A stretch of DNA of 61,270 bases, filler included. It is 4 parts of 4 records of this genome, joined end to end, with 100 filler letters (N's around TTAATTAATTAA, not from the genome) between each part and the next. Parts side by side here need not be neighbours in the genome. Positions count along the whole stretch, not along the records: positions 1 to 10,724 come from SRR20825010_3663; 3 more parts are not named here. One strand, 5' to 3'. Positions 1 to 29,094 of this stretch are shown in pieces; positions within the stretch are counted from its first letter, which is position 1, and each line of letters begins with the position of its first letter. The notes beneath the pieces are model-generated. The model saw nothing but the letters and a program-made list of their open reading frames with translations. It searched no databases and was not told the origin of the DNA. The position numbers and the translations under genes were made by a program.

Positions 1-468
1 TCCCGGATTTCCCGAAATTCTCCGGGGGAAGTTTTCCCGTCGGAAAGTTTTGGTCATTACCGGAAATTCTACACGGAAAATTTTTCACGAAGGTACGTTT
101 ACCTGAATTCAAGGAAGTCCACACGTTAAACTTTTCTTATCCGGAAGTTTTATACACATCGTGTATGTTAAACACCTTTCCTATGGTGATGGTTACTTTA
201 ATTTCGTAGAATGCATCTACTCAACCAAAAAAATTCTGGTGCAGCGTGTCCTCCCCGAGAGAAATACAACAACATGTACACACAGTAATACACGTTATTA
301 ATACGTACTTTAATGTGCGTTGATCTACGCGGGGTACATGAATCTTCGGAAAGGTGTGTCACTACGTATATGAACGTTACACGCAAGTACGTATATGTGT
401 TAACCAGTTCCGTTTATATACATGCCCGTAGTAAATGCCTGGTAAATACATCACTTTACTTTATTCGT

Positions 469-483
469 TGTGTTTGGTTTTTT
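469..483 (-). ncRNA. Candidate gRNA core complementary to edited COX3 (CVWFF)
   Basis: + strand tgt gtt tgg ttt ttt ends 26 nt before the motif at 509. Resembles trypanosomatid COX3 HFVDxVWFFLLR; attacgt follows, but out of frame. Confidence 0.4.
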
Positions 484-651
484 ATTACGTGTAACACAAT
501 AACATACAGGAAAGGTGTACAGCATGTAAAAGTTGATATCTATGTACATGCCCACGCGTATAAATTAATAGTTACTACCGTGTATGTTATGCATACATCC
601 GATATAGCCGTGTACACCTTTCCTAAAGTGTAATACATCTAAATTCATTAT

Positions 652-666
652 CACAAAAAATCATTC
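652..666 (+). ncRNA. Candidate gRNA core complementary to CYb PEWFF region
   Basis: Reverse complement gaa tga ttt ttt = E W F F (UGA=Trp), preceded by ata ttg ggc (ILxEWFF vs ILPEWFF). Starts about 30 nt after motif 614-623. Confidence 0.45.
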
Positions 667-787
667 GCCCAATATGTTATAATATATAACGTGCAACATG
701 TTAACAAACATGTTATTTTTTAGTATACATGTACATACACATGAATTTCGTTGACATACCTACTGACGTTATAGTTTTACGGTGTTA

Positions 788-803
788 GTATATTGTCGTA
801 GTT
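788..803 (-). ncRNA. Candidate gRNA core complementary to CYb VYCRS region
   Basis: + strand gta tat tgt cgt agt t = V Y C R S. The match ends 31 nt before the motif at 834. Confidence 0.55.
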
Positions 804-2050
804 ACTATTGTAGTATGTGAATTGCACATTACAGGAAAGGTGTACTCGATGTGTAACAAACGCGTACGCTGGAAGTTGTACTATCCTATTACTACCCGAC
901 TTACACCTTTCCAGTGGGAACAAGACAATACACACACTAAACCGTATAGTGCATTATTCTTTACGTATTAGTGACACGTTACGGTACAGTACTACTATGG
1001 TAATATACTACCTTACTACATCCATACACATACATGTTGTGTAGACACCTTTCCATGTGTATGTGTTAAAAAATAACCGTGAATAACAATCCCAAAATAA
1101 TGATGGACATCACAATGTACTGCGTAGATGGTAGCTTCCCGGATATGTTATTACTACATCCTCTTCCAGGTAGCATACATGTATATATGTCTACGTGATG
1201 TTATACCCGCGGGCACATACATTTTTGTAAGGGTGTAACGCTACTACGTGAAGGACACCTTTCCGGGATGGATATTATAATGTTGCTTAACACATACAAA
1301 AACATGTAGAAGAATAACGCCAAACAGAGCAAGTCTTCTTGTTTGAGACTGTAATGATGCATCTACACCGTATTGTTTTATTACGTTATTTGAATACTAG
1401 TATCGCCTACACCGTATGTGCTTGGTGATAGATATGTACATATACGTAGACCTAAACTTGTATACACCTTTCCTAAAGTGTGTGTATGCGGTATCTTTTA
1501 ACAAAACACAAACAAACAACACAGAATTGTAATAAACGATAATATTAACTCGGTAACGTAACTTGTTGTGTAAGCATTGCGTGTTGTTACATATGATACC
1601 GTTACACACAGATACATAGTAGACTTAAAGCCCTGTACACCTTTCCGGCGTAGTACTAACAATCTTATACGGGTGCTATCGCACAACATACACATAACAC
1701 AAAATGGGGAGTAACTACCTAATCCCATAGACATGGTGCTACCCGGGGGAATGTTAAAAACGTATGAAAACATGTACACGACATATCGTTTACACGTAAC
1801 GTGCAACCTAATTACGCGCGCACAATACCAACGAGACATTACCGTGTATGAGTTGATATTTGTTTTTGTTTGTGTAAAATCTAACCTACCCCGTATAACC
1901 TAGGAAAGGTGTACAGCATTTGCTTATACAAAGATTTAAACGGCGACTGTTTAATTATTGTCGTGTCTACGACAGATGCCAGCCTGTCTGTAACCTACGG
2001 AAAGGTGTACCCCGGTGTGTAAAGGACATGTGTAATGCATCATCATGGTC

Positions 2051-2071
2051 ATTTTGTAGTTTGTTGTCCTT
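2051..2071 (-). ncRNA. Candidate ATP6 gRNA core (FC[N/S]LLS family, copy 1)
   Basis: attttgtagtttgttgtcctt ends 31 nt before motif 2102. Differs from 3503-3523 by three transitions only. Confidence 0.65.
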
Positions 2072-2340
2072 TACTGTGTGTACGATAGGAAACATTTTAT
2101 AGGAAAGGTGTACTCTGCCAGCAAAACACATAGATTGTATGCAACCACGTGCACACGATTTAGATATGTGGCAACTATCGTTACCCCAGGCATATACTGC
2201 GTAAATCTAACTTTTTTAGGTAAGCGCCCTAAACTAAACATGTCTTTACATAAACTCACAGAGGCTTATATACGTAAGATATTACAGCATGGGGTGTATA
2301 CACACACCTTTCCAGTAGGACCTATCGACACTGCTGTAAT

Positions 2341-2361
2341 CAGAGAAAAACACTCCAGAAA
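2341..2361 (+). ncRNA. Candidate ATP6 gRNA core (FLECFSL)
   Basis: Reverse complement ttt ctg gag tgt ttt tct ctg = FLECFSL, identical to the recalled trypanosomatid A6 peptide CFLECFSLL. Starts 28 nt after motif 2304-2313. Confidence 0.7.
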
Positions 2362-3502
2362 TTTCACAAAGTACAAGCAGTATATACTGTATACATGTAT
2401 AATAGTGTCGTGTGTATAAACGTATACTCATACACCTTTCCTAGTTAATCCTATACACACTATCGTATACGCTATCGCGAATCAATCAAATAACGTACGG
2501 CGTGTAACATATCATGCACATTGCACATTACATAAAGTGTAACATTACGGAACTAGTGCGCGGTTTTATAATGTATATGTGTTCCATTCATTCTGCAGAT
2601 TTTTATGTGGCCTGTTATACTAGTAATACCAGGAAAGGTGTATGTGCTGTGTAACAATACATGACGGGGGTTGATATATAACCACACCCTAACGAAGCGT
2701 TGCACGTATAGTCGTTCATTATAGGTCGTTTATCGTGTACACGATATGGTTAGTACACCTTTCCGGGGGTTGTATCTTCCCATTACGTATACATTCAATA
2801 AAAAAAATAAAGTTACATTACATGTATGCGGTCCATCCTGGATGTGTAGTGTACGCGTCTGTTAGTTCGTGTGAGTATATTATGCATGTGCATCTAAATA
2901 AACATAGTGTACTGGATATGTGGGAGGCCTTACGTATATCGTGTTGGTCTGCCGTTATTTTGCTCTATACTGTATACTGTGTTTATTGTGTAATATTAGG
3001 AAAGGTGTATTACTATACCCCGTGTGGCGGTACTTATATAGTGCCGTATACAGTATAAGGCATGGTGAACTACCCGAGTGTGTTAAACAACCCTATCCGA
3101 CAGTAAAGAATATCCACCTAGGAAGTATGTTTTTTTACGTGTAAGTATTACAACGTATATTAACTACACGGAAAGGTGTTTTTTTCAGGCTTGTATGTTC
3201 TTCGGTTAAGGGTCTGTACTTTATTGGCTTTACGTAAAATAATGCTTTACCAGTGCACACATATTACGCAATTACGTATAACCGTACGTGCAGCAACCGA
3301 TACATGTAGACGGTTTGGTGGTTTACATTACGAATGGTGATGCACCTAGCGGGAACTACACCTACACTAACAAGGGGTGCTACACTTCTGGTAAGTAATA
3401 TACACTATACGATTACATACGTGTAGGCGGGTTATCGACAATAACATGCATTTTCCGATCTGGTCCCACGGAAATTAGCGTACACGTATACATCGTATGT
3501 TA

Positions 3503-3523
3503 GTTCTGTAATTTGTTGTCCTT
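3503..3523 (-). ncRNA. Candidate ATP6 gRNA core (FCNLLS family, copy 2)
   Basis: g ttc tgt aat ttg ttg tcc tt = FCNLLS (recalled A6 RLFCNLLSSH). Ends 32 nt before the variant motif at 3555. Confidence 0.7.
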
Positions 3524-4684
3524 AGTTACTATGGGGTTAAGCTATACATGGCAAGGAAAGGTGACACACGTTGTGTACTAACAGTTTACTGGTATATGCT
3601 TTACGGATGACACGCAGTACACCGCGCACATACCATGTTTAAAAATGTATGTGTATAATACACAGTTAGACTATATGTATCTGTTACCACGTAAATACTT
3701 TGATGCCACCCCATGCAAACGTTGTATCGTATACACCCCGAGATGAAGAACTTACCAAACACAGATGGACCGTGTATCATCATATAATATAAACGTGTGT
3801 ATTATAATTTGTATGAGCGATAGCGATATACACAAGCACAACACCTGTTATAAGCGGAAAGGTGTACATCCTGTAATGGTATGGTGTAATATATTCTGTG
3901 GTGCAACATGTTATTACATTAATCCCATTAATGTCCCGTGGGGGATATACATGTTGTTGTAACGACGTATAACCATATGTCCTTGTACAGCACAGTTATG
4001 TCTACGTCGGTGTTTTGCTCTTTGTATACACAGTAAAGCATTACGTCCTACAGGAAAGGTGTATTATACAGTGTATGTACTGTAATATACTACACATGTA
4101 AACTACGGACGGGCCTTAACGGAAATTATTATTGTACATGAATAGTCCTTGCAGGCAGACATCGTACACACAGTATCCGGGTATAACCACATGGTAATGG
4201 ATTACATTACACGTACGCATGGTGTTGTATACAACCCGAGGTATTACGTAGGACAGGTATGTACACAGAATACGTACCACAGGTAACAACGGCGTGTATA
4301 ACTATCTTGTACGTATTTGTGTTTGCGTGTTATTGTAATACTGAACATAGTACTGTACGGAAAGGTGTAACTCTTGACATGTACGTGCGCATGAACAACG
4401 TCACGCAAACTACGTACACAGTGTCTGTCATATGTAACATTATATACATGTACACTTCCAACGGGTGTTCATTGTTTTTGTTGTTGCAGTATACCTTTTT
4501 AATCGTATTATAGGAAAGGTGTATCCCACGCAATATACGCGTAGGTGCACACCCTATCACGACGCAAATATGTCTGTTGTAACACGTAATGCCACGGGTT
4601 TTTCTGGGGTCATATCACATACTAACAAGCGTGTTGTAACGTTACTACACCTTTCCGAGAATAACAGTGTGTGTCATAATAATT

Positions 4685-4708
4685 ACAAAAATCAAAAAAT
4701 AGTATCAA
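4685..4708 (+). ncRNA. Candidate gRNA core (LFFDF; ATP6 or COX3)
   Basis: Reverse complement ttg ata cta ttt ttt gat ttt tgt; compare A6 LLMFFDFF. Starts 29 nt after motif 4647-4656. Confidence 0.4.
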
Positions 4709-4928
4709 AATTGTATAGTACAGCGTTTAACTATAATCGTGTACTTTACTTGTGAGTGTGTTTTGTTTTGTATTAACAGCACCCACTATCATTACTTTGC
4801 GGGAAAGGTGTATAGGCTTCGGGTGACATCTGCTAATTATATTACAGCCAATATGTGTATACATGTAGTGTACCGTAGCGTAAGCATCCAACACTTATTG
4901 TTGGTTACGATAAACACACACGGAACTT

Positions 4929-4958
4929 TGTAGTTTGCGTTTTGTTTTTTTTGTATTT
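4929..4958 (-). ncRNA. Candidate RPS12 gRNA core (CSLRFVFFVF)
   Basis: + strand translates CSLRFVFFVF vs recalled T. brucei RPS12 CCLRFVLFVL. Ends 30 nt before motif 4988. Low complexity weakens the match. Confidence 0.4.
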
Positions 4959-6506
4959 ACGTTACACGGTTTTATGTAATACACATAGGAAAGGTGTATC
5001 CCTGGTAACGTAGGTTGATAGTTTAGCATTATAGCAGTATCCTGTTGATTGCATACTGTATGGTATGCCTTGTGTGGTACATTCTATGCTGTAACACAAT
5101 TGCCGTAGACTAAGTTGCAAAGTACATTATTAATCAACTACGTTTTTGTTGTTTTTAGTATACGCGACACTTTACAACCTATTCCGGAAAGGTGTTATAC
5201 ATACTCACATACACGATGACAGGTGTATACCACATCTTGTACAGGTAAAACTAACTACACGTACATATAACTTATACCAAGCAAGTTCACCAGGCAACTT
5301 ATACTGTTAATATCAAATGATATGACGTGGATACTTTCCCGGCAAGAACAATGTTAGTCTACGTAAAACACGACATGTTTATACACACAGGTATGCTTTC
5401 GGATGTATAATGACTACACCTTTCCACGTAATACACACAAGTACGTTATGTGCTAACGCACAACAAAATTAAAAAATAAGTATAAACCACATGTCCTTAT
5501 ATGATAATAGTGTTCTCCTATACGGGGTAGGATACTTCACGTATATCAACGGTACATAGTAGACATGTGTACTTATCACCCGGTAATAACAACAGTAATC
5601 TGCATGCCTGGTAGACAGCTGTACGTACAGTACTCCGAGCAGTATATGTGCACACACCGTTGTGTAATATCCTTGTTTTACAGCCCGGGTAATGTATACT
5701 ATGTAACTATGTTACGTCATGTATAAACGTGTACTATAAATATACACACCTTTCCTATTATCCACGTAACATACACTTACCACCCAAAAAAAACAAACAA
5801 ACAGCATACATTACATACTATATACATTTGTAGACACACGTAATCCATGTCATACACACTTTTTTTACCGAGGTGGTTAACGTTATCCGCGGATACCGCA
5901 ACTGCCTATGCGTATGCAATTACATGCCCAGGTATGTAGTAACATGTTTTACACAGCATGGGGTTACACAGATAAATATCGGCACATGTAAAATAGTAAA
6001 AAACATCTTTCCATAGATCACAGTATGGTTAGTTAAGTAAACCTAACCAACAACGTGCATTGTAACAAAGTAATACAACACGTACTTTACACGTCACGGG
6101 TTGTTAATATTACACCCTTCTACTATTACGAGGTTCCTCCTGCATTGCATTATTATTTTGGGATTGATACTTGTAGCAAGAATTCTGTGTATATCTCGGA
6201 AAGGTGTGGGTGTTACCCGCGTAACCAGGTAACACATCGCCGTATACAGTGTTAAACCCACAGTTATTTTTATAATATTCTGTACCTTGTGTAGTAAAGT
6301 TCCTATTACCGCAATACTATAAGTACGTATCTTTTCTGTGTAACCTTTACGATGTGCGGTTGTACTGCCGCCTATAAAACCTGAGTTGCTTCGATGACTC
6401 ATGGATGTAAGTTATTTGTCCTATTTTTTTTGATGATGGTCCTGCATGGACCTGTACCCGCCTACCCACACCTTTCCAAATGTGTAATGAATATTTAAAA
6501 CCATAC

Positions 6507-6526
6507 AGGACAACAACTTACAAAAC
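6507..6526 (+). ncRNA. Candidate ATP6 gRNA core (FCNLLS family, copy 3)
   Basis: Reverse complement gttttgtaagttgttgtcct is 18/20 identical to 3503-3522. Starts 30 nt after motif 6468-6477. Confidence 0.6.
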
Positions 6527-9341
6527 ATGTATAGCATATTTTGCATGTAGTTGGCATCTGTAACTGTTATGGGAGTAACATACTATCCTGGTACGTATAG
6601 CGCTGTATGATCTTACAGTCGTGTACGCTACGTTCCCACTGGGTGTGTCACGTCACGCTAACGTTCACACCGACCCAGCATGTTTAACAACGCGTATTTA
6701 AAAAGTATATATCCGGTAGTGTTATTTTATAACAGTACGTAGTATGCACACCTTTCCTAATGTTACGTTCGCCCCGGTAGTACACGTATAATCACAAAAA
6801 AAAGATTACAACGTGTATGCGCGTAATACTATGTACGGGTGTTAGTGCACATCCAAAGTTGTGTGTTAGTAACGCAGTACACACCTTTCCTTTTCGTTCT
6901 TTAATACCGTATGCAACACACCCTGCGGGAAAGTATATGCGCTTATGGAACTGCGTTGTCCCGCTTATGCCGTGCATGCCGGTTTTCTGTCATTACACGT
7001 ACATTGCTCCGGTACATTATAGTATGTTCTTTTTATATGGGTACACACCTTTCCTGTAAGTACGTCGTGCATTACATTACAACAACAACAAAACAAAACC
7101 GAAGTAATAACATGGTACATCACAACCCTCGCAAGTTACGTACTTACGTGTGATAGGATGATATATTACATGTCTGGTAAGTGGATGCTTACTTTTTGGC
7201 ATTTGTTTTCCTGTACCTTACGTCGGTTTATGTTAAGTACAATACATCAGGACCGGTAGGGTACTTACGGTAACATACTGTGCAGTTACATTGTATACAC
7301 GCATACTATCACAATATATAGGATACATGTTTGACACCTTTCCGGCAAGTTATAATACCTTATACATAGTGCTACCGCACAAGTAAACTTATCATTATTA
7401 CGTTACGTTTGTACTATTTATATACGCGTACCGCTTACAAAAAAGAGTAATATATGTGAGTGTGTGTTGCTAACCTAACACACCTTTCCTGGGTAATGTA
7501 CTTACACCTATATGGTTCGTATACACTCACCCTCCCTAGTAGAGTACTGCATACAAACTGTACATAGTATGTAAGACTTACCCACATATATAAATATTAT
7601 ACTACGTATAACATACAACCCACGGTATGCTAATACGATGCATAGCCAAGAATAATAAGCGTGCTCCACCGGGCTTACCGGTTCTTATTTTGGGATTGTA
7701 TGTTTACGTACATGGAAGTGCGCGTACGGAAAGGTGTTCACACGTATGTAACCTACCATATGTATTATACATAGTGTTTTGCAGCAGTATACCCTATAGA
7801 ACAGTTAAGTGTAAACTGTGTACCACCGTACATCTTTCCGCTACGGTTATTGCTTATGATGTGTGCGTTTACATATGCACAAATATATGTAAGACCACAC
7901 CACACCACTTACATACAGAAATAACCTACCCTGTATAATACGTTGTATGTAAGCAATCATGCACCCGGTCTGGTACAATTAATGATATACATTAGGTTTT
8001 TTTTAATGTACTAATTACTACAGTGCAAGTTTACAACTGCTGGAAAGGTGTACCTCTGGTGAGAGGTTAACATTACACGCCTGCATTATTGCAGTATGCT
8101 TGCAGCATGTAGACGTATTGCAACCATGTACAACAACCAAAATAAAAGTAGAATACCCCCCCCCGAGTATACGTACCCATACTATCACAAATATATATTA
8201 ACTGTTGCTGAACGGGTGTAACGCAGGTTGTTATACTCGTAACGGTTGTATGATTACCTCGACGTACGGCATCAACGTATACTCAGATCGCTGCATATAC
8301 GGTATACACCTTTCCGGATGGGATATAAATATGTATGGCTTAGTCGTTACACTCCAAATTAAATAATGTAACACTTACTAACATACACTGTTGTACGTGT
8401 AATGCCCGTAATCCACAATATGTTGTTTGCTTACTACCTAGTTGGGTATAGATGGTTATCAAACGTATATACACCTTTCCTAGAAAATTAAAGTACACTC
8501 CGTTACATGCAAACAACAACGCATCCAACACAGTAGAGGTAACAGTAAACGTTACGGATGCAGTTGTATGTCTCGTATGCGTGGTGTAACCGGCACGCTG
8601 TATATAAGCCCGTATACGTAAAGACGCGTATGTAACGTTATACGTACAATAGTAACACCGGTGATATCTTGTTCGGTTTTAGTTGTTTAAGTTTACCGGA
8701 TGTATGATTATTACAGTTAACCCTGTTATAGTGGAAAGGTGCAGCCAATCACCCTACTAGGGGTTACTTTTATTAAACCTGCACCTTTCCTTATTTGTTG
8801 CGTTTTAAAAACCCGTAATACTTAAAAAACAACAAATAGCAAATTGTTGTACGTGCAGTTACATAGTATAGAGACACGTTACGTATATGTCTAGCGTGTA
8901 CACCTTTCCGAAAGCATCATACAGGCCTGGTAAAAACAACATCCCAAAATAAGGATATACTATTAATTTATACATACTTTTGTCGTTTTTAGTGGGGCGT
9001 AACTTTTGCACGGCGTATGGACCTGTATTACGCATACGTGTAGTATTCAAGACAGGCTATACTCTTACGTATTTCCGTTTGGTTTCATTGAGTTGTGTTC
9101 TGTGTAATATGTTAAACGTTATCCCTGGAAAGGTGTGATATGGGGGTCGTCCAGGTGACTACAATTTTCTGTAGACAGTACCACGATTACAACTACGTGC
9201 CGTACATATTACCACACGCACCACGTACGATAGTAAGTAATGTAATAACATACGAAACCCGGTTTTAAAATATAGAGCTCCTCGTGCATGTAAATGCAGA
9301 CTGTTCGTACACCTTTCCAGTATCACAGTAACGTACTTGTT

Positions 9342-9368
9342 CATACATACACAACATAAATAAAACAT
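9342..9368 (+). ncRNA. Candidate gRNA core complementary to the COX1 5' end (MFYLCCVCM)
   Basis: Reverse complement atg ttt tat tta tgt tgt gta tgt atg vs recalled trypanosomatid COX1 start MF(F/W)LCLVCLS. Lies downstream of motif 9309-9318. Confidence 0.5.
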
Positions 9369-10724
9369 AACGGTTATCGTATAAATTATAAACATTTATG
9401 TATGCGGGTACACTAACACCTTTCCGGATATGATTTGTTATCGTACATTAATCGTAAACACACAAAAAACGAGGGCTTACCATGTTGTTTGTAATATTTA
9501 CGCACGTTGTATATGCTACGTCTATTGTATACGTGTGGTATAAAGATATACGTTCAGTATTAACAGTATCCACGGGGTGGTGTATGTACGCACATGAGTT
9601 GTATACTACTGTTATGCATTACAGCCTACAGGATTTATTACCACAACAAATTACTGTGGTGTATATTACTAATATACAACAAATGCGGGTATACCTTTCC
9701 TGTATGTGTAATTGTTTATTTACAAAAAACAAAAACACACCACACAATTTTATATTGGTCTACGTGGGTAGTTACTACATCCTACACGGAGTATAACGCG
9801 AACCGTACACGTCAAGTTTTGTTTTTTTTGTTTTTGGGTTGGTGTGTGCTTGCTATGTATGGTTCCCGGGAAAGGTGTGGTAGCAATCGTGTTGTATATG
9901 TACACCTTTCCTATTAGAACTATGCGTAAATGTATGTGCCTTACACAAAACACAACGTACAATAACCGAGTTGGGACACGTACTTCGTACATCATGTTCC
10001 GTAGTATTGCTAGTATGTTGCATGGTGTGTATATACCTAGTTTACACACCTTTCCTAAGGCACGTAAAAGCATGGGATATACATAAAAACAAAAAAGGAA
10101 GGTTCCATAATTATGTATACACCACGCTACGTAATGTGTGTATGCATACACTATCAAAGTGGATCCTACTGGTATTTCCGGGGAATACACATGTGCATTT
10201 GACTTTGTATTATTTATTTCGTGATAACGAATATATGTATACACATGCTCGGTCCATGGAAAGGTGTACTACCACAACATACGTGCTATATGGGTATACA
10301 TGTGCACGCAACGCAAAGAACGCGTACCCTCCACTGGAAATATATGTCTATACGTTACACCTTTCCGTATGCGTTACGTTTATGTTTGTATATGCATACA
10401 ATCACAAACAGAACGTACAAATAAAAAAATGAAAACACGCTGTTAAGAGTATAAGCATTACAATACACGCACAGTATGGTGTAAGGTACTAGTTGGACTG
10501 TTAATAATACGTCACGCGCATCCGAGGGTGTGCACCTTTCCTATACACCATGTACAAACCCGGATCATAAACAATTCACACAAACAAAACTGTATAGCGT
10601 AAAGTACTACGTATATAGGTGTGAATTGTAAACAATGTCGTGTACAAGTAAAGGGACAAGAGTTAATTACGACATTAATACACAAACTTTTATTGGGAAG
10701 TTATCTCAGGTTTAAGAAACTTCC

Positions 10725-10824
10725 NNNNNNNNNNNNNNNNNNNNNNNNNNNNNNNNNNNNNNNNNNNNTTAATTAATTAANNNNNNNNNNNNNNNNNNNN
10801 NNNNNNNNNNNNNNNNNNNNNNNN
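10725..10824. other. Artificial contig spacer
   Basis: N-run + TTAATTAATTAA (stops in all six frames) + N-run; composition changes abruptly. Confidence 0.99.
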
Positions 10825-13800
10825 GCTGACCAAGGCGTACGTGAACGTGTCGCCAGCATCCGCATCGGTCGTGCTCAACGCACCCACTGCGGTTCCCGAT
10901 GCGACGTCTTCAGCGATGGTGTCGTTGTCAATCGCGATCGCGGTTGGCACGGCGTTCGTGCCGGTGATCGTAATCGTCAGGATCTGCGTGATGGTTGCTC
11001 CTGCCGAGTCCGTCGATTGAACACGAACCGAGTACGACGATTGGGTGTCGAAGTCGAACGTCGTTGCCGTCACCAAGTTGCTGCCATCAATCGAGAAGGC
11101 GGCGTTGTCGGTGTCGCCTTCCCCGCTGACGAGGGCATATGTGAACGTGTCACCAGCGTCAGCGTCCGTCGTGCTCAGAGCACCAACGACAGTGCCAGAT
11201 GCCACGTCTTCGGAGATCGTTGCGTTGTCAATCGCGAGCGACGTTGGAGCGTCGTTGGAATCGGTGATCGACAGAGTCAGAATTTGTTCAAACGTGGCTC
11301 CACCCGAATCGGTCGTTTGCACTCGAATTGAGTAAGACGACTGAGTCTCGAAGTCAAACGTAGTGGCTGTCACGAGATTGCTGCCACTGATCGTGAAGGC
11401 AGCGTTGTCCGTGTCGCCTTCGCCGCTGACCAAGGCGTAGGTGAATGTGTCCGAAGCATTCGCGTCGGTCGTGCTGAGCGATCCCACGGTGGTTCCGACG
11501 GTCGCGTGTTCTTCGATGTCCGTGTTGTCGATCGAAATCGCGGTTGGCGTTTGGTTGGCTTCGCTTTCCGTGATCGTGATCGTCAAGACTTGCTCGAAGG
11601 TTGCTCCGGCCGAGTCTTCCGTTTGGACACGAATCGAATAAGACGACTGGGTGTCGAAGTCGAACGTGGTTGCGGTCACCAAGTTCCCGCCACTGATGGT
11701 GAACGCGGCATTGTCGGTGTCACCTTCTCCACTGACCAGCGTGTAAGTAAATGTGTCCGATGCATCGGCGTCGGTCGTGCTGAATGCACCCACCGTGGTA
11801 CCGGACGCGGCATCTTCCGAAATGCTGCTGTTGTCCAGCGAAATCGCGGTGGGAACTTCGTTGGTGTCAGTCACGGTGATCGTGAGGACTTGTTCGAAAG
11901 TCGCGCCGGCGGAATCGGTCGTCTGAACTCGGATCGAGTAGGACGACTGAGTTTCAAAGTCGAACGTGGTCGCGGTGACGAGGTTGTTTCCGCTGATGGT
12001 GAAGGCAGCGTTGTCCGTGTCGCCATCGCCACTGACCAAGGCATAGGTGAACGTGTCCGATGCATCGTCGTCCGTGGTGGTGAACGAGCCAACCGTCGTT
12101 CCTGACGCGGTGTCTTCTGCGATCGTGCTGTTGTCGATCGCGATCGCGGTCGGAGCATCGTTCACGTTTGTGGCGGTGATCGTGAACGTTTCCACGGTCG
12201 ACAATCCAAACGGATCGGTGCTTTGGATTCGAACCGAGTAAGACGATTGGGTTTCGAAGTCCAACGATGCGGCGGTCACCAAGTTGTTGCCGTCGATCGC
12301 GAAGGATGCATTGTCGGTATCCCCCGTGCCACTGACCAACGTGTAGACGAACGAGTCCATTGTGTTGGCGTCGGTCGTGCTGAGCGTGCCGACGGTGGTT
12401 CCGATGTCTGCGTTTTCCTCGACGTCGTTGTTGTCAATCGCGATGGCGGTGGGTGCCACGTTGGTCGACGTGATGGTGATCGTGAACGTTTCTTCGGTGG
12501 ATAGCCCCTCCGCATCCTGCGCTCTCACTCGCACCGAATAAGACGATTGGGTTTGCTGGTTGGCCGCAAACGCGGTGACCAATTCTCCATTGGAGATGGT
12601 GAACGAGGCGTTGTCCGTGTCGCCGGTTCCCGAAACCAACGTGTAGGTGATCGTGTCGCCGGAATCCGGATCATCGGTGCCCAGAGTTCCAACCGTCGTG
12701 CCGCTTGGTTCACCGGTTGCGACGTGGGTGCCCGACAAAGTGATCGTGGTTGGTGCTTCGTTGACACTGGAAACCGTGATGGTGAAGGTTTCTTCGGTGA
12801 ATCCGCCCGTCGAGTCGGTGCTGCGAATTCGGATCGTCAGCGTGCCTTGCGTTTCGGCATCCAAAGATCCGGCGGTTTGCAATTCATCGCCGTCGATTTG
12901 GAACAACGCATTGTCGTCGTCGCCTTCACCGGTCACGAAGGTGTACGTGAACGTGTCACCGGATGTCGGGTCGGTGGAACTGAGGGTGCCCACGGTATCT
13001 CCGGCCGATCCGTTTTCAGCCACGGTGGAATCGCTGAGCGAGATCGCAGTCGGTCCTTCGTTGCTTTGAACAATCGTGAAGACTTGTTCAAAAGTTTCGC
13101 CGCCCGAATCCGTTGTTTGGATTCGGATGCTGTAACTGCTTTGCGTGTCGAAGTCGATCGTTGTCGCCGTTCGCAGTTCATTGCCCACGATGGTGAACGA
13201 GGCGTTGTCCGTGTCACCAGTGCCGGATACCAACGCATAGGTGAACGTGTCGGATGCATCCACGTCGGTGGTGGTGAAGGATCCAACGACGGTTCCCGAG
13301 ACCGAATCATCCGCAACCGAATCATCGCTCAGAGCGATCGCGGTGGGAGCTTCGTTGATGTCATCGACATTGATGGTGAAGGTCTGATCGAATGACAATC
13401 CGCCTTGGTCGGTGGTGCGAACCACGACGGTGTAGCTGCTCTTGGTTTCAAAATCGAGCGATTCTGTGGCGACCAACGAATTGCCAGAGATGGCAAATGT
13501 GGTGTCGGTGGTGCTGCCGTCGATCGAAACGATGCTGTAAGTGAACGTGTCCCCGGTGTTGCTATCGGTGGTCGAAAGGTCGCCAACCGAAGTGCTCGCC
13601 GCTTCGTTTTCAGCGATCGATGTGTCGCTCAGCGAAATCCCGGTGGGAGCGACATTTTGATCGGTAACCGTCAACGTGAAGACACGCTCAAGAGTGCGAC
13701 CAGTCGAGTCGGTGGTCTGCACGCGGATGGTGTAGGTGTCTTGCACCGATGAGTCGAAAACTTCTGCGGTCAACAAAGTGTTGCCCGAGATGGTGAACGA

Positions 13801-15138
13801 ACTGTTGTCCGTGTCACCTGTGCCAGAAACCAATGCATAGGTGTGTGTGTCGCCCGAGTCAGGATCCATCGTGGAGAACGTTCCCACGGAAGTTCCCACG
13901 GCAACATTTTCTGCCACGGTGGTGCTGGAAAGGCTGATGTTTGTCGGTGCTTGGGCATCCGGTAGATCCGGAATGTTTGGCGTCGACAATCCGACGACTC
14001 GTCGCAACAAATCGCTCGCGTCGAGTGGGCTCAGTCCGTCTTGTCCCGTCACATCACCGAGCAGGTTCGGGTCGATCGCGGCGAAAGGCACAAAGGTTTC
14101 GCCGGATGCGGTTGCGTCGGTGACAACAAAGCCGCTGTCCAAGTCGACTCCTACACGAGCAACCAACCGAGCATCTTCGGCGTCGTAACGACGGTTGGCG
14201 TTGACGTCGCCGGGGAACGCGACGACTTGAATGGCATCGTCCGCGCTGGCGGTCATGGCTCCCGCATTCACATCCAACGAACTGATCGTCAGGCTGCCAG
14301 TCGAACCATAAGGAGCGTCTTCTGGAATGGTCGCGATCAAGTCGATGATGTCGGCTTGGCCCGCGTCCATGGCCTCCAGGCTGAAGAACGTGATCGTTGC
14401 AACGCCGGGGGTGTCCAAGTTCGCTTCGACTTGGCTGCCGGTGGGGGCATCAGCACCAAGTTGAACGCCCGAGATATCAAGCAGTGCAGGATCGTACTGG
14501 ATTGTCATGGTGACCGACGTCACGCCATCCGCATTGCTCAGTTGAATCGGCAGCCCGGCTGGCAATTCCGTGCCGCTGCCACCGACGGGCAACTGAACCG
14601 TTTGGCTGGGTCCGCGAACGATGTCGGGCAACCCAACAACCAACGACGCGGGACTGGCAACGGTGAACGTCGTTACAAAGTTGCCGCCGGCGGTTCCGTT
14701 GTCATCGCCATCAAGAAGCTCGCCGTCAGCCAGATCGGTGAAGCCGTCGCTGGCACTTCGAAGAGTCGCTGTGTAGGTGTCGGCAGCGAGCGGTCCATCG
14801 GTTGCAATGAATGTAACGGTTGTGCCGTTGATAACGAGTGAACCGCGCACTTCACCAGTCGTTGCACCCTGCAACGTCACGTCAGCGGCGCCCGCCGCTC
14901 CAGCTTCAGTGTCGTACAAGTTGATTTTTTGGACGCTGATCTCTTCGCTCAACTCAGCGGTGAAGCCGGATGGAGTGGGTGCGAAGGAAGCGATCGTGGC
15001 CGCCAAAACGCGACGTGACTCCAGCGATTCGACTTTCAATCGACGATCGCTCGATCCGAGATATCGGCTCTTGTGGCGGGAATGACGGGGTTTATTCGAA
15101 GTCAGACGAGCTAGCAATCGTTGGACAGCGGGTTTCAT
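10825..15138 (-). CDS. Large planctomycete surface protein: N-terminal planctomycete extracellular motif, cohesin, dockerin, about 10 cadherin-like repeats (3' truncated)
   Basis: RRLKVESLESRRVLA motif; cohesin-like LPIQLSNADGVTSVTMTIQYDPALL; paired dockerin GDVNANRRYDAEDA / GDVTGQDGLSPLDA; repeated APTAIAIDN...DFETQSSYSIRVQTTD units. ATG at 15138. Confidence 0.9.
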
Positions 15139-15390
15139 AGATGGGAGACCTTGTTCGACCAAGGGTCGAGAGAAAAGCAATACTGCCGTCCCTGCTGAGG
15201 TTGGATTGTCACGCGGTCCCTGGCGACAAACGGAGTGCTCAATTCGAGCCCACGGTGATTTTAAGACGACGCCGAACGAATTTCGTCACCGGGCTTTTGA
15301 AATTTTTTTAGAAATTTTTTGTGCGTTGATGCGTCAGAGGTATCGTTGAGTGAGACATCGAAACAACAAGAAAGACTCTGGCAAGCTCTG

Positions 15391-16578
15391 ATGAAACCTT
15401 CTCGATCCCGTCGCCTTTCCGTTGAATCGCTCGAAGGCCGACGCCTTCTCGCAGCGGTCAATATTCCTGATGACCTCACGTCGGCACCCGATGCGATCGT
15501 CTCTGTTCCAGTGAACATTGACTCGGCAACCGGAGTGCGTGCGGCGGAGATTCGGTTGAGCTACGACACGTCGGTGTTGGATCTCGATGCTGATGACATC
15601 GACTTCGGCAGTATTTGGGGGGCCGGAAGTGACACCCAAGTCACTGCGAATGTGGACGACGCGGCGGGAACAGTGGTCATCTTTGTTTCTGCCTCCAGTG
15701 CGTTGACTGACGTTTCCGGCAGTCTGGTCGAACTTCCGTTTTCAGTGGCTAGCAACGCAGTGGTGGATAGCACCACGGTGCTGGACCTGACACAAGTCAC
15801 ATTGAACGAAGGACAAATCTCGGTCGATCCAGCACCCGTTTCCGGATCGGACTCAACCGACGGATTGATCACCATCACCGCGGCAGCAACCGGCGATGAC
15901 TCGATCTCTGGATTTGTATACGCGGACGCAAACAATGACAACGTTGTTGGAACCGGCGAAGCCATCCCGGGCGTCACAGTCACTCTAACCAACACATCCA
16001 CCGGCGCAGAATTTCAGACAACCACTGATGCCGACGGCAGTTACGAGTTCACCGATTTGGCACCCGGCGAATATGAAATTGTTCAGTCGCAACCAGTCGC
16101 TTACTTGGACAGTGGTGTCAACGAGCTGACCGTCACGCTTGTCGAAGGCACCACGCTCGAAGATCAGAACTTCCGCGAACTGGGGCTGCTTCCTCAGTAC
16201 ATCTTCAATCGCTTGCACACCAACACGGTGATGCCCGTTGGTTCCGACAATTGGAACGACGCAATCAGTGAGATCAACACCTTCGCCGAGTCAACGAATA
16301 GCTCCAGTGCGACAAGTTCTGCGGCAGCAAGTTCCAGTGTCGTGGCGGCATCCACTTCGTCCGCTAGCGGGACCGAGGCAACCACCACCGCGACCTCGGA
16401 TTCAACGGCCAGCGGCGAACCCTTGATGGATGAGTCCACCACATCGCCGGTAAGTTCCACCGCATCAAGTGTTGCCACCGCACAAACGGCGGCGATGGGA
16501 ACACCCGTTGGTTCCGGTGACGACGACTCGGATGACACCGCCGCGGTCGATGAAGTTTTTGCAAGCAATCTGTTTTAG
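15391..16578 (+). CDS. Cohesin + SdrD-B/Cna-B-like domain secreted protein with Ser/Thr-rich tail
   Basis: RRLSVESLEGRRLLA motif; VSVPVNIDSATGVRAAEIRLSYD cohesin; ISGFVYADANND...TTTDADGSYEFTDLAPGEYEI. Confidence 0.85.
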   Translation: MKPSRSRRLSVESLEGRRLLAAVNIPDDLTSAPDAIVSVPVNIDSATGVRAAEIRLSYDTSVLDLDADDIDFGSIWGAGSDTQVTANVDDAAGTVVIFVSASSALTDVSGSLVELPFSVASNAVVDSTTVLDLTQVTLNEGQISVDPAPVSGSDSTDGLITITAAATGDDSISGFVYADANNDNVVGTGEAIPGVTVTLTNTSTGAEFQTTTDADGSYEFTDLAPGEYEIVQSQPVAYLDSGVNELTVTLVEGTTLEDQNFRELGLLPQYIFNRLHTNTVMPVGSDNWNDAISEINTFAESTNSSSATSSAAASSSVVAASTSSASGTEATTTATSDSTASGEPLMDESTTSPVSSTASSVATAQTAAMGTPVGSGDDDSDDTAAVDEVFASNLF

Positions 16579-16910
16579 CGAAGCTTTTGAATCCCGCGTT
16601 TCGGGCACGAACTATTTGCTCGTGCCATGAAACAGATTTCTGTTTGCAACCTGTGCTTCCGCTTCGCATCGCCCGCTAAGAAAACGATCCGAGTCACTTC
16701 GATGACTCTCAATGAAACTCGGTTTTGCGCCAGCGAATTCTTGCAGAGTGTTCGCTGAGTGACGTTGACACAAATGTTCAGCCTGGACTACTTCTTTGAT
16801 TGAAGTCCCCAAGTTCGATTGGAGTTTCGAACTCCAATTGAATTTGCTGGGCGTTCATTGCACTCGTGATGAACAGAAGATTCCATTCGGAAACATACAT
16901 GGGAGCCAGG

Positions 16911-17546
16911 ATGGCCAAAACATGTCGCGTGTTGACGACCGAGCGTTTGGAAGGTCGACACTTGATGGCAAGTGTTTCGTTGGACCTCATCGGACCAGTT
17001 CCGATGCAAGAGTCCGTGGCGTCGATCCGAGTCGAAGATGCTCCCGCACTTCGAGCTGCCGAGATTCGATTTGAGTTCGACCCTCAGTTCGTGCAAATCG
17101 AAAAAGAAGACATCCGCCCCGGTGCGATCTGGGACAACAAAGCCGCTCTCATTGCGAATGTCGATGAGGAATCCGGCACCGTAGTTGCCTATGTGTTTTC
17201 CACTCAGCCGATCCTCGGCAGCGATGGCAACTTGCTCGACATTGAAATCGATCAATCGCGAAATGCGGCTTGCTTGACTCCGGCAAAGTTGGATCTTCAA
17301 CATGTCCGGTTGAACGAAGGCACAATCGAACTGGAATCCGAACCCGTCGCGGGACCGGACCCAACGGACCGTTCTGCAATGCGTTCCGCACGCTCGACAG
17401 ACATGTTTGCACCGCCGGAGACAAAGCCATTTATTGGCCCGGTCTTGCCGGACCACTTGAAACCCAGCCATGTGGACACGGTCATGAACGATATCTTCCG
17501 ATCACCCGTTCACGGAAGAATGCTTGGCTTTCAACGCAACGGTTGA
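16911..17546 (+). CDS. Small cohesin-domain protein, paralog of the upstream gene
   Basis: ERLEGRHLMA motif; shares RAAEIR, ANVD..GTV, LNEG and DxTD with 15391-16578. Confidence 0.8.
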   Translation: MAKTCRVLTTERLEGRHLMASVSLDLIGPVPMQESVASIRVEDAPALRAAEIRFEFDPQFVQIEKEDIRPGAIWDNKAALIANVDEESGTVVAYVFSTQPILGSDGNLLDIEIDQSRNAACLTPAKLDLQHVRLNEGTIELESEPVAGPDPTDRSAMRSARSTDMFAPPETKPFIGPVLPDHLKPSHVDTVMNDIFRSPVHGRMLGFQRNG

Positions 17547-17554
17547 ATGACCGG

Positions 17555-19117
17555 TCAACCGACAATCTCGCTGATCACACTTCCGTAGACATCGGTCAAT
17601 CGGAAGTCGCGGCCCGCATAACGATACGTCAACTTTTCATGATCCAGCCCTAGCAGGTGCAGGATCGTGGCGTGCCAATCGTGGATGTGGCATTTGCCTT
17701 CGACGGCTTCGTAACCATGTTCGTCGGTGGCTCCATAACTGAAGCCACCGCGAACTCCGCCGCCGGCCATCCAAGTGGTGTAACCCTTGTTGTTGTGGTC
17801 GCGGCCATCTCCGTTTTGAGCGTGTGGAGTTCGGCCAAATTCACCGGCCCAGATCACCAGCGTTTCATCCAGCAAACCTCGTTGCTTGAGGTCTTGCAAC
17901 AACCCCGCGATGGGTTGATCGATCTGCGAGCAATGATCGTCCATTTCATCTCGCAAGTTTCGGTGGTGATCCCATCCGGGGCTGACGCATTCGATGAATC
18001 GGACGCCGCGTTCTGCTAAACGTCGTGCCATCAAGCACTGACGACCAAAGTCATCCGTGCCCGAACCGTTGATGCCGTACAGCTCCAAGGTGTCCTGAGA
18101 TTCATCGGACAAATCGATCGCTTCGGGCATCTCGGATTGCATTCGATAAGCCAACTCAAACGATTCGATCATGCCTTCCACTTGTGGCTGGTGCCCATCG
18201 CGATCGAGTTTGTTTTGATTCAGGTTTTGAATCAGATCCAACTGAATGCGCTGCAGGTCCGGATCCAACATGCGGTTGGTCAGATTCGGAATTGCACTGT
18301 CATCGCGTCCGGCGAATTGATCGCGGAAGGGACGGCCAAACGGACGCTGTTGCATCGATGCGTCCATGCCACCCGACATCCCCATCCGCGACTCGGCGTA
18401 GCGTCGGCGTCGATCGCCGTTCATTCCCGATTGCATCCCGCGACGCATTCGACCGGGTTGATTCGAAGTGTTTGCACGCATCATGTTTTGAGCGAACCCG
18501 CCGCGGCTTCGACCGCCCGCTTTCATCTTGGTTCCCTGATAGATCGCCGGCAAGAATGAACTGGCATAGTTGCCGCTGTCACCAGGGGACGGATTCAAAA
18601 CGATGAACCCGGGCAAGTTCTCGTTTTCGGTGCCGAGACCATAAAGCGTCCACGCCCCCATCGACGGCCGCGGGAACTGGAAGTTTCCCGTGTGAGTTTG
18701 CGTGGTCGCTTGTGGGTGATTGGGCTGATCGCAATGCATGCCTCGCAGCAAACAAAGTTCATCGGCTTGCTTGGAAAGTTCAGGAAACAAATCCGAGATC
18801 CACAAACCACTATCGCCTCGCTGACGAAATTCCCACGGCGATCCCAACAACCGTCCGGTCCCGCCGTACTTGCCAACTTTGCCCGTGTCTTGTGTCAGTT
18901 GCGGTTTGTAATCAAACGTGTCGACATGTGACGGTGCACCCCGCATCGACAGAAAGATGACTCGCTTGGCTTTGGATTCAAAGTGTGGCTCTTTCACCTC
19001 CAGTGGATTGCTGGCGCGTGCTTGTTCGGTAGCCAATGCCGCGAACGCGAGGTAGCCAAATCCGCTGCTGACTGCTTTGAGTGCGTTGCGGCGAGAGAGA
19101 TCGTTTGGCTCTGACAT
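17555..19117 (-). CDS. DUF1501 family (sulfatase-like) Tat-exported protein
   Basis: SRRNALK Tat motif; AKRVIFLSMRGAPSHVDTFDYKP; GEFGRTP; GRDH; RDFRLTDVYG. Confidence 0.92.
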   Translation of the reverse strand: MSEPNDLSRRNALKAVSSGFGYLAFAALATEQARASNPLEVKEPHFESKAKRVIFLSMRGAPSHVDTFDYKPQLTQDTGKVGKYGGTGRLLGSPWEFRQRGDSGLWISDLFPELSKQADELCLLRGMHCDQPNHPQATTQTHTGNFQFPRPSMGAWTLYGLGTENENLPGFIVLNPSPGDSGNYASSFLPAIYQGTKMKAGGRSRGGFAQNMMRANTSNQPGRMRRGMQSGMNGDRRRRYAESRMGMSGGMDASMQQRPFGRPFRDQFAGRDDSAIPNLTNRMLDPDLQRIQLDLIQNLNQNKLDRDGHQPQVEGMIESFELAYRMQSEMPEAIDLSDESQDTLELYGINGSGTDDFGRQCLMARRLAERGVRFIECVSPGWDHHRNLRDEMDDHCSQIDQPIAGLLQDLKQRGLLDETLVIWAGEFGRTPHAQNGDGRDHNNKGYTTWMAGGGVRGGFSYGATDEHGYEAVEGKCHIHDWHATILHLLGLDHEKLTYRYAGRDFRLTDVYGSVISEIVG

Positions 19118-19159
19118 AACGTTGACCTGATGAGATTACGAAGTGGAGGAGTGAAGCTT

Positions 19160-19255
19160 CTTAGCGGAGCGGCGCAAGCCGCCCGGTGCGGCAATTCCCT
19201 GTGGCGTAGGCTTCCACCCTGGGAGTGAGGTCCACGAGCTGGAAACCCATTTCAC
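19160..19255. repeat. Planctomycete REP-like palindromes
   Basis: gcggcgcaagccgc hairpin plus a degenerate taggcttcca...tggaaaccca inverted pair, related to gataggcttccagcctgtc at about 21775. Confidence 0.5.
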
Positions 19256-19260
19256 ATGAT

Positions 19261-21714: not shown

Positions 21715-21769
21715 GGCGTCACGTGCAATCATGAAGTCTGACAGAGAAGAGATAAGAATGGGCATCCAA

Positions 21770-21793
21770 TGTGAGATAGGCTTCCAGCCTGTC
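21770..21793. repeat. Half of a Pirellulaceae-type REP (GTGxGATAGGCTTCCAGCCTGTC)
   Basis: Intergenic tgtgagataggcttccagcctgtc; similar to 19201-19255. Confidence 0.45.
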
Positions 21794-21849
21794 GTCCTTC
21801 AAAGCGAAACCCCCGGATCACTGACCGGCACCACCGGCGTCGGTCACCA

Positions 21850-22281
21850 TCATTCACCGGGGCGTTTGGGCTGCACGCCCTTGTCCTGGTTTCGTATCGC
21901 ACGTTGACCATCAGCTCCCGGTCGCATCCCTTCACGGCCTTGGCCTTGCCGACCTCGCATGCCTTGCATTCGATCTTCGCGAATCGCTGTCAGGGCTGCA
22001 GCGAGTTCTTTTTCATTGAGAGCACCATCGCCGTCCTTGTCATGGTCTTTGATCAATTTCGCTGCGATCTTGGTTGAGTCCAATTGCATACCGGCGCCCA
22101 TCCGCCGTCTGGCTTGCGGGTCGCGCTCGCCATCTTTGGCCATGCGGTTGGGTTTTTGAGCGAACGCGACTGACGAGATCAGTGGCAGGGCGGTTCCGCC
22201 GGCCAACAATTTCATCAAGAAGCGACGTCGCTGTGGGTGCTCTTCTGCAGGCTGACTCGAGCCAATGTTTTCGTTTGTCAT
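21850..22281 (-). CDS. Small Tat-exported EF-hand protein
   Basis: QRRRFLMK Tat signal; DKDGDGALNEKEL EF-hand loop. Confidence 0.8.
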   Translation of the reverse strand: MTNENIGSSQPAEEHPQRRRFLMKLLAGGTALPLISSVAFAQKPNRMAKDGERDPQARRRMGAGMQLDSTKIAAKLIKDHDKDGDGALNEKELAAALTAIREDRMQGMRGRQGQGREGMRPGADGQRAIRNQDKGVQPKRPGE

Positions 22282-22417
22282 TGTGAATTCCTGTTTGGGA
22301 ACTGGGGCAAAAAGATTGATCCAAAGGGACGGTTGGTGCAAAGTTTCAGGTAACTCGTCACGGAACGTCCTGTGGGACGCTTCGCACAAATGGCAACTGA
22401 AACTCTGCTGCTATGCA

Positions 22418-23890: not shown

Positions 23891-24405
23891 CCGTTTGCAC
23901 CCTCCGAAACGAATTTGTCTTCGATGCATTCACGAAGTTGTTCTCGGATCCGCTGCAAGGCTTTGGATACCGAGTTGGCCGTCATCCCAATTTGTTCGCT
24001 GATCGCGATCGGCTTGAGTCTCTTTTGATATCTCAGTTCGCAGATCTTTCGGGAGCGACCTGATAATTGATCAATGCACGTCGGCAAATGATCCAGTTCC
24101 TCCGGAGGCGATGATTGCTCGAACGTCGACTGCAAATTCGCGATCGTTTCTTCGTTGAACACCAGACGATCGCGTCGACGACGTCGCAGATACAAACTGA
24201 TTTGGTTGCGTGCGACGCCAATCGCCCAGCCCTGAAACGCTTGCGAAGAATCGTAGGATTCGAAGGAATTCAAAACCGCGAGCGCAGTCTCTTGCAGCAC
24301 ATCTTCGCGATCGCGGCGATCTCGAACCACCGACGCAACGAAAGCGGCCACCACCGGCTGAGCCGAGGTCCACAATCGGGTCGCATGGCGTGTTGAATCG
24401 TCCAC
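23887..24405 (-). CDS. ECF sigma-70 factor
   Basis: EDVLQET, FQGWAIGVARN, and C-terminal HTH VSKALQRIREQLRECIE. GTG start with AGGAG RBS. Confidence 0.92.
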   Translation of the reverse strand: MDDSTRHATRLWTSAQPVVAAFVASVVRDRRDREDVLQETALAVLNSFESYDSSQAFQGWAIGVARNQISLYLRRRRRDRLVFNEETIANLQSTFEQSSPPEELDHLPTCIDQLSGRSRKICELRYQKRLKPIAISEQIGMTANSVSKALQRIREQLRECIEDKFVSEGANG

Positions 24406-24625
24406 TCATAACTCCTGGAATTGGGTTTGCATCAGTTCCTTATCCGCTCGAATCAAATCATGACATGAAAGCGGCCGTTTTTTCGAAATTTGTGATTCCG
24501 CCGTCCTCCACGCGGCCAATTGTTCTCAATCGCTGGAGTACGATGGAGCCCCCATTCCCACCGCAGCAGACCGGCCTGAACAAACGTTTGCCTGCCTGTC
24601 CCCACCTCATGTACCCCACATCCAG

Positions 24626-25969: not shown

Positions 25970-26002
25970 CGATCGATCGTTTGGAGACTCTGAACGAAAG
26001 TG

Positions 26003-28335: not shown

Positions 28336-28597
28336 GGGGTGCGTTGCGGGGGAGGAAGCAAGGCCAAGCCAAATGTCTGGACGATGGTCTTGCAGGAATG
28401 GACGCGAATGAGAAATGTCAGCGATGGACCGGCAATCATAATCCACGATCACCCCACGCTGTCGCTGCCACTCCCGTTCGCCGGCTTTGGCTGCAATTCA
28501 AATCCAGGTCCATTAAAATCAACGTTGTAGTAGTCTCATCCTGAATCACAGACGACACCCTGTCGTCCAGAACTCCGTTGGGAGACCTCGACTTAAC

Positions 28598-28930: not shown

Positions 28931-29094
28931 GTCGTGTAACATTGTTTTTGCGAATTGCGAAAGGGCTTCGGCGCACCTCGGCTCTTTGGCAACGGGCCAT
29001 GAATTTGGATGATTTTTCGTATTTCAGGCGTCGTTCACTTCGTTCAGGGCGGTGTCTTAAAAAACTTCCGTTGTGCGGCACGTTAGTCGGTTGC

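Follow-up and report, generated by a model that had tools for sequence, protein, structure and literature searches.

The first 10,724 nucleotides (nt) of the DNA stretch analysed here carry a dense array of short cassettes, in which the 10-mer ACACCTTTCC is followed at a set distance by a small A/C-rich block, and this contig together with its relatives from metagenomes is very probably an array of guide RNA genes. The complete stretch (the window) has a length of 61,270 nt and is made up of four unrelated contigs which are separated by spacers of 44 N, TTAATTAATTAA, and another 44 N at positions 10725–10824, 29095–29194, and 56187–56286. Contig 1, the one with the cassettes, has a GC content of 0.38 and contains 5.2 cassettes per kb, about one per 191 nt. 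With less confidence, yet still as the more probable course, contig 1 can be regarded as a member of a high-copy family of molecules of about 10–11.5 kb with inverted terminal repeats, which would belong to the kinetoplast of a kinetoplastid, so far uncultured, from marine or estuarine waters and whose cassettes would guide editing by insertion and deletion of uridines (U). A first-pass annotation of the same DNA had proposed that candidate guides at 2341–2361 and 4685–4708, together with a family of blocks reading FCNLLS, tile neighbouring parts of ATP6. The guide interpretation is well supported by the anatomy of the cassettes and by the relatives, and the assignment to ATP6 is plausible and unproven. 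The compact, motif-tagged putative guide gene chromosome with inverted terminal repeats is the more interesting result and goes beyond what had been claimed.

Motif and cassette anatomy

The motif ACACCTTTCC and its reverse complement GGAAAGGTGT are found in 49 exact copies on both strands, all of them between positions 172 and 10366 and hence confined to contig 1 among the four contigs of the window. The expected number is 0.17, and the highest count in 100 shuffles was two. When up to one mismatch is allowed seven further copies are added, which gives 56 in contig 1. In the cassettes which were inspected the 10-mer is followed by a variable leader of about 27–33 nt and then by an A/C-rich block of about 15–45 nt. 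The composition of the first 25–30 nt after the motif is unremarkable. The A/C-rich zone, in which G and T are scarce, extends from +37 to +62 counted from the motif start, and at position 48 the 49 exact copies have 29 A, 16 C, three G, and one T.

Contig 1 was pooled with the 15 relatives described below, yielding 466 cassettes (378 with the exact motif) in 98023 nt, or 4.75 per kb. The base make-up of the block in this pooled set is A.53, C.20, G.09, and T.18, as compared to A.33, C.15, G.21, and T.32 in the leader. A 20-nt segment with at least 16 A or C is present in 332 of the 466 cassettes versus 52 of 466 random segments. Counts of 13-mers which recur at more than one genomic place are highest at the motif and from +20 to +43 (129, 462, 321, and 106 per 6-nt bin) and range from 26 to 109 elsewhere between −70 and +115, so that the block is the sole conserved part of the cassette apart from the motif. 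At least one 13-mer in common with another cassette was found for 297 of the 466 cassettes, versus 57–101 in 20 shuffles. Redundancy families of two to six cassettes have only the block (15–20 nt) in common and unrelated flanks. The complement of the block is rich in U and G, a make-up like that of edited mRNA. The suggestion of the first-pass annotation that both of its stretches are guide-like is borne out by this anatomy: each has the motif at a fixed distance and a short antisense A/C-rich block, and the blocks fall into redundancy families with many relatives.

Besides the FCNLLS family, which is treated below, a second redundancy family in contig 1 has the core ATCCCAAAATAA. Depending on the frame its complements read ...SLFWD..., ...YFGI..., or ...IILGL..., and a comparison with CLSLFWHF of Escherichia coli CyoC, the COX3 homologue, yielded a score of 37, which lies within the shuffles. 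As another observation, in about 15–17 of the 466 cassettes the block opens with GCTATCGC(A/G) or CGCTATCGCG, after which the sequences differ. Examples in the window are located at 1637–1700, 2432–2490, 3800–3865, and 7334–7390, and others were seen in the loci L201, L188, L151, and L146. The common start may represent a 5' anchor that several guides share before their guiding parts differ, or else a subset of cassettes may have an initiator-like element there.

An independent general repeat finder returned the motif and a few block families from contig 1 and nothing else. Under translation table 4 the contig has 29 open reading frames (ORFs) of at least 70 amino acids, all of them short, the longest having 173 amino acids. 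A search of contig 1 against Rfam gave no family at threshold, and at E≤1 two sub-threshold matches at chance level. Full-text searches of the literature found no description of the ACACCTTTCC motif or of such dense arrays, and the motif strings gave only unrelated primer matches among the 20 matches listed of 1240. A 2026 preprint deals with the kinetoplast DNA (kDNA) content of free-living kinetoplastids; the structure of guide genes is not discussed in those of its passages which were available.

From this layout we infer a simple mode of action. The 10-mer, at about 30 nt from the guide on its upstream side, would act as a promoter or as a signal for processing, and transcription of the motif-bearing strand would yield a short guide RNA. 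Its A/C block would then pair with a U/G-rich edited mitochondrial mRNA, with A opposite U and C opposite G. As G is nearly absent from the block few G:U pairs would be expected, as in Trypanoplasma borreli. Each block would direct insertion and deletion of U, one short block at a time, proceeding in the 3' to 5' direction.

Relatives, molecule ends, and known guide RNA systems

Relatives were sought in collections of viral, prokaryote genome, and metagenome contigs with two motif copies 130–160 nt apart as the query. The three loci in viral contigs and the 105 loci in genome contigs were all due to chance or tandem repeats, and none had the motif density of the window together with an A/C block. 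The metagenome contigs yielded at least 116 loci, and 15 of these have the signature of the window, with 2.9–5.7 exact motif copies per kb, which occupy both strands or come close to it, a GC content of 0.37–0.40, and a mean block A+C of 0.68–0.82. One marine assembly prefix is common to 14 of the 15 relatives among the matches listed. No pair among these 15 and contig 1 overlaps by more than 50 31-mers.

In public data at least part of contig 1 is present in nine runs from five studies. One study contributes three runs in which the whole contig is present, each run having its own coded organism label, and others of the nine are labelled estuary or marine metagenome. None of the listed runs is recorded as RNA. 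The carrier is probably a shared companion or contaminant of the samples of these three runs rather than the labelled organisms. In run X1 a contig of 10743 nt spans positions 3–10724 at a depth of 423; it is possibly the source of the window itself and is therefore not counted as independent support. Two further X1 contigs, one of 10665 nt (depth 1104) and one of 10130 nt (depth 828), match the window only in the first approximately 50 nt, as do contigs of 11498 and 11477 nt from an estuary run and a contig of 10576 nt from a third study. Thirteen short low-depth contigs from run X5, which is RNA by guess only, map to contig 1 and have no bearing on expression.

The shared end consists of units of the TTTCCCGGAAA / GGGAAATTTTCCCGACGGGAAGTTT type. 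These units were found at ends of L119, L123, L166, and L188, and at both ends in inverted orientation of L191 and L195, and they recur on otherwise different molecules of 10–11.5 kb from three studies. There is thus a population of high-copy molecules, about 10–11.5 kb in size, which differ in their interior but share inverted ends and for which a linear form is suggested.

Trypanosomatid minicircles, as in Trypanosoma brucei, are circles of 0.5–10 kb with one to five guides and a conserved region containing the conserved sequence blocks CSB1–3. The cassettes described here resemble the minicircle cassettes in being small independent guide-like genes flanked by conserved signals, in their putative antisense relation to edited mRNA rich in U, and in occurring in redundant classes. 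They differ in number, with dozens of cassettes on one molecule, in having an upstream 10-mer instead of flanking inverted repeats, in the apparently linear molecule, and in guides which are almost free of G.

The following comparisons with other kinetoplastids rest on extracts of the cited papers. Towards their 5' side the guide candidates of Perkinsela have a tract rich in A or in A and C, and they have, as far as the extracts go, no common motif (PMC4669381). The A/C-rich tract is a likeness to contig 1, in which, however, this tract is the conserved and peptide-matching part and a motif is present. Guide contigs of free-living Prokinetoplastina are small high-coverage molecules of about 0.6–2.2 kb with a conserved backbone and one to three guides (PMC7859406), unlike the dozens of cassettes seen here.

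The closest layout is that of T. borreli, where large molecules carry guide RNA loci on either strand, in no placement pattern, with the motif RYAGGCTTT 20–40 bp upstream of the loci (PMC9679448). The guides have a median length of 28 bp, 0.11 G:U pairs and 0.13 mismatches per base, and extensive redundancy, and repeats in opposite orientation, with a CSB3-like 12-mer, bound the contigs (PMC9679448). Contig 1 and its relatives share with these 'ScaI-flanked' molecules the many loci on both strands, the upstream motif, the short putative guides with few expected G:U pairs, the inverted flanking repeats, and the redundancy. The motif itself is a different one, as RYAGGCTTT has no copy in contig 1 and a single match in another contig of the window. 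Further differences are the size, about 10–11.5 kb as compared to about 70 kb, and the packing, with 56 cassettes in 10.7 kb as compared to about 23 high-confidence loci per contig, which corresponds to an approximately 15-fold density (PMC9679448). The terminal repeats also differ, and no clear CSB3 was seen in contig 1.

ATP6 as a candidate target

The peptide readings on which the ATP6 proposal was built were all recovered. The minus strand of 2335–2370 translates under table 4 to FVKFLECFSLIT, with FLECFSL exactly at 2341–2361, and the minus strand of 4658–4738 contains TILILFFDFCNYY, with LFFDF inside 4685–4708. The FCNLLS family is real as well: blocks reading FCNLLS, MFCKLLS, and SFCSLLS are listed in Table 1, and six guides of this family have the common ending ...TGTAA(T/G)TTGTTGTCC. 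A related cassette of L188 (motif at 4469) reads YCICFMKFLICFCN, which suggests that the block of the first stretch extends to about 2382. As a composition-matched null the six-frame translation of contig 1 was searched for other orderings of the same letters. For FLECFSL none of 1259 orderings was found, for FCNLLS one of 359, and for LFFDF none of 19. The FLECFSL 7-mer is thus not a by-product of composition. LFFDF alone is a weak match since FFDF or FFNF is present in four other cassettes of the 466.

As a stand-in for the kinetoplastid A6 protein the AtpB protein of E. coli (K-12 record) was used as the reference. In AtpB Glu196 lies in E-x-x-S-L-L and Arg210, fourteen residues on, in L-R-L-F-x-N; a further nine residues separate Arg210 from Glu219. 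The E-x-x-S-L pattern 14 residues ahead of the essential Arg is matched by FLECFSL. A cassette of L191 (motif at 1329, minus strand) reads VILHCNSFLQLFCN, which contains SFLQLFCN; its Q codon CAA (guide UUG) could equally be CGA or CGG and hence Arg through G:U pairing. This SFL(Q/R)LFCN guide overlaps the FCNLLS guides, and the six guides of the FCN family follow on. The E-x-x-S-L and L-(R)-L-F-x-N readings come in the order and approximate spacing of AtpB residues 194–214. We lean slightly towards the view that the block at 2341–2361 guides that part of ATP6 helix 5 in which the conserved Glu precedes the essential Arg by 14 residues, and the FCNLLS family would then sit just after this Arg. 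That 4685–4708 also guides ATP6 is doubtful.

The A6 peptide assumed in the first-pass annotation has a spacing of nine residues from Arg to His, which is presumably also that of T. brucei subunit a. The same spacing separates R146 and H155, which are named for T. brucei ATP synthase subunit a in the extract consulted (PMC9553925). This agreement is a point for ATP6 as the target. The tiling could not be followed through, as no guide linking FCNLLS to LFFDF was found among the 466 cassettes and FLECFSL is joined to its neighbour by a compatible overlap of 6 nt only.

Several observations speak against ATP6 as the target. When the FLECFSL guide and the L191 guide are placed in the 14-residue register they are compatible over these 6 nt, which ranks 21 of 129 offsets, so the register of Glu to Arg is no better than chance. 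Between the guide at 2049–2069 and the L191 guide there is an 18-nt overlap which is compatible when wobble is allowed, and it is among the 10 best of 465. Strict pairing of these two guides, however, gives UGG and AGU (Trp and Ser) where ATP6 needs Arg and Asn, so that an ATP6 reading has to allow two mismatched positions over about 27 nt. Such a frequency does not exceed the mismatch rate reported for T. borreli, and it is still not evidence for ATP6. The L188 relative YCICFMKFLICFCN has I/V at the position of the would-be Glu. A guide with His nine residues after the Arg was not found when NLLSxH and LLSSH were sought among the 466 cassettes, the guide coverage being incomplete. In comparison to subunit a of ATP synthase the Arg is obtained only via G:U and is contradicted by the strict reading, and there is no guide for His or Glu nine residues on. 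Blind scans of 1398 guide frames against E. coli AtpB, CyoA/B/C, ten Nuo subunits, and RpsL gave nothing above shuffles; the scan against AtpB was done with and without wobble sets and both maxima lay within the shuffles. ND6 is a pan-edited gene in trypanosomatids. In another frame (window 2321–2386, minus strand) the FLECFSL guide reads LCEISGVFFSDY, and EISGVFFS therein is identical in seven of eight positions to AISGVFFS of NuoJ, the ND6 homologue. This match at residues 38–45 has a score of 40 which was reached by three of 40 shuffles, and it is taken as chance. A scan of many proteins would meet a chance 7-residue run of this kind about once.

The most probable alternative accepts the guide RNA genes as real and regards the ATP6 matches as coincidence, so that 2341–2361, 4685–4708, and the FCNLLS family would guide other pan-edited mRNAs with products just as rich in F, L, C, S, and V. 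We consider this rather unlikely. Translations of guide blocks contain 12% V, 12% L, 9% F, and 8% C, which makes short hydrophobic matches cheap, and the NuoJ match, the Trp and Ser in the strict reading, the L188 relative without Glu, the missing chain to LFFDF, and the scans at chance level all fit with it. A coincidence is harder to reconcile with the absence of all 1259 reordered FLECFSL strings from contig 1, with three separate guide groups falling in one 30-residue stretch which in subunit a is conserved more strongly than any other (E..SL, LRLFxN), and with SFL(Q/R)LFCN having surfaced when only four to five of eight positions were specified. As peptide matches from guide complements are cheap in such a composition, a real reference is needed before a target gene can be named.

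The hope that edited mRNAs might be reconstructed from the guides alone was not fulfilled. Assembly by wobble-tolerant guide overlap was attempted with the 466 cassettes and failed, as the blocks are short and of low complexity, their overlaps are ambiguous, and they come from more than one strain. Seeds drew many low-complexity matches, and single linkage by 12-mers chained 314 of the 466 cassettes into one cluster. Searches of the Protein Data Bank by phmmer with two guide translations and with a profile of the FCN family gave no match at E≤10, an uninformative result for queries so short that the local-alignment cost of HMMER is unpassable. In a large protein collection a search for close neighbours returned none and one for longer proteins a single unscored candidate with shared words, 27 pattern matches in viral contigs left none confirmed, and the strings FLECFSL and FCNLLS were not found in full-text searches of the literature. 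The best single lead of the 15-protein scan concerns another gene. A guide of L195 (motif at 10785, plus strand) has the complement ...TRGVCRLLYT, similar to KRGVCTRVYT, the conserved S12 motif in E. coli RpsL. Five of 40 shuffles reached its score of 34, and the guide is kept as a lead for an rps12 guide.

Table 1: Positions in the window of contig 1, its terminal repeat, and selected motifs, putative guide blocks, and cassettes.
Feature	Position	Strand	Description
Contig 1	1–10724	both	about 10.7 kb multicopy DNA with 56 guide-like cassettes (32 plus, 24 minus), bounded by N spacer
Terminal repeat region	1–60		TTTCCCGGAAA / GGGAAATTTTCCCGACGGGAAGTTT-type units, telomere-like, common to ends of other family molecules
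Second redundancy family, core ATCCCAAAATAA	1084–1126, 6127–6169, 7684–7707, 8930–8953	plus, minus, minus, plus	inverted pairs I1, I10
SFCSLLS cassette, FCNLLS family	2049–2111	minus	SFCSLLS at 2049–2069 (plus-strand reading); repeat family D17
ACACCTTTCC motif of first stretch	2304–2313	plus	exact copy
Putative guide block, first stretch	2335–2382	plus (guide sense)	starts 27–31 nt after motif; reverse complement YCLYFVKFLECFSLIT, FLECFSL at 2341–2361
FCNLLS cassette	3504–3564	minus	one-mismatch motif 3555–3564; FCNLLS at 3504–3521 (plus-strand reading); repeat family D17
ACACCTTTCC motif of second stretch	4647–4656	plus	exact copy
Putative guide block, second stretch	4685–4708	plus	starts 28 nt after motif; reverse complement LILFFDFC, LFFDF at 4688–4702
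MFCKLLS cassette, FCNLLS family	6468–6528	plus	complement of 6508–6528 reads MFCKLLS (minus-strand reading)

Nature of the molecule and its meaning

A second alternative concerns the guide interpretation itself. Contig 1 might be a repeat-rich, non-coding, high-copy linear element, such as a plasmid, DNA of satellite type, or an element from an organelle of another eukaryote, with the motif and block serving as promoters of other small RNAs or as replication or packaging sites. Such an element would suit several observations. A convincing CSB3-like 12-mer GGGGTTGGTGTA was not found: there are no exact copies, and matches with two mismatches number four in contig 1 and ten in the window as compared to 3.84 expected, part of the similarity in contig 1 being due to GGTGTA of the motif itself. 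No known RNA family was matched, the whole contig is carried by three runs with three different organism labels, and the neighbouring contigs of the window are bacterial. This alternative is nevertheless improbable, as the layout agrees point for point with the guide loci of T. borreli in the extracts at hand (PMC9679448). Furthermore what is conserved is a short A/C block, specific to one strand, whose complement is rich in U and G as are pan-edited mRNAs, and the small redundancy families of blocks with unrelated flanks are as found in guide genes.

The bacterial character of the neighbouring contigs was seen when 10 of their ORFs were submitted to Pfam, eight of which had matches. Contig 2 (10825–29094, GC about 0.56) has genes of planctomycete type with PSCyt1/2, PSD1, DUF1501, and Planc_extracel domains and a cadherin-repeat protein of 1452 amino acids, and contig 3 (GC about 0.40) has ordinary bacterial genes for GH3, MutS2/Smr, and thioredoxin-like proteins. 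The large ORFs at 53293–56186 and 59335–60630 had no Pfam match at 1e-5.

Diplonemid chromosomes are described as circles which carry one gene module in a long constant region. An origin from diplonemids or other non-kinetoplastid euglenozoans, with the blocks as antisense RNAs for module joining or U-appendage, would agree with 14 of the 15 listed relatives coming from one marine assembly, with the estuarine or marine labels of other runs, and with the general abundance of diplonemids in such waters. It is very improbable, as no one-module circle with a long constant region was seen here, pan-edited mRNAs of kinetoplastids are a good fit for the U/G-rich complements, and the closest published layout is, on the extracts consulted, that of a kinetoplastid (PMC9679448).

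If contig 1 and its relatives are indeed guide RNA arrays of a kinetoplastid, their arrangement would amount to a kinetoplast architecture not yet described. It would consist of linear guide RNA chromosomes of about 10–11.5 kb with telomere-like inverted ends, each with about 50 mini-genes for short guides almost free of G:U pairs and a single 10-nt signal, in a widespread uncultured marine or estuarine kinetoplastid. We regard the chances for and against this full picture as evenly balanced. A search of metagenomes for the motif would then be enough to read the whole guide repertoire of such an organism, and its complete editing programme would become accessible once matching RNA data were added.

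The organisation of guide RNA genes is known in detail for trypanosomatids and for only a handful of other kinetoplastids, while the free-living marine lineages, which make up most of kinetoplastid diversity, are almost uncharted. A 10-nt tag at a fixed distance from the guide would permit the harvest of guide repertoires from environmental data, an estimate of the size of the editing load in uncultured species, and tests of how guide redundancy and inflation of kDNA evolve. The density of about 190 nt per cassette, the molecule size of about 10–11 kb, and the common ends also bear on the question of how such a genome is replicated and segregated without a minicircle network.

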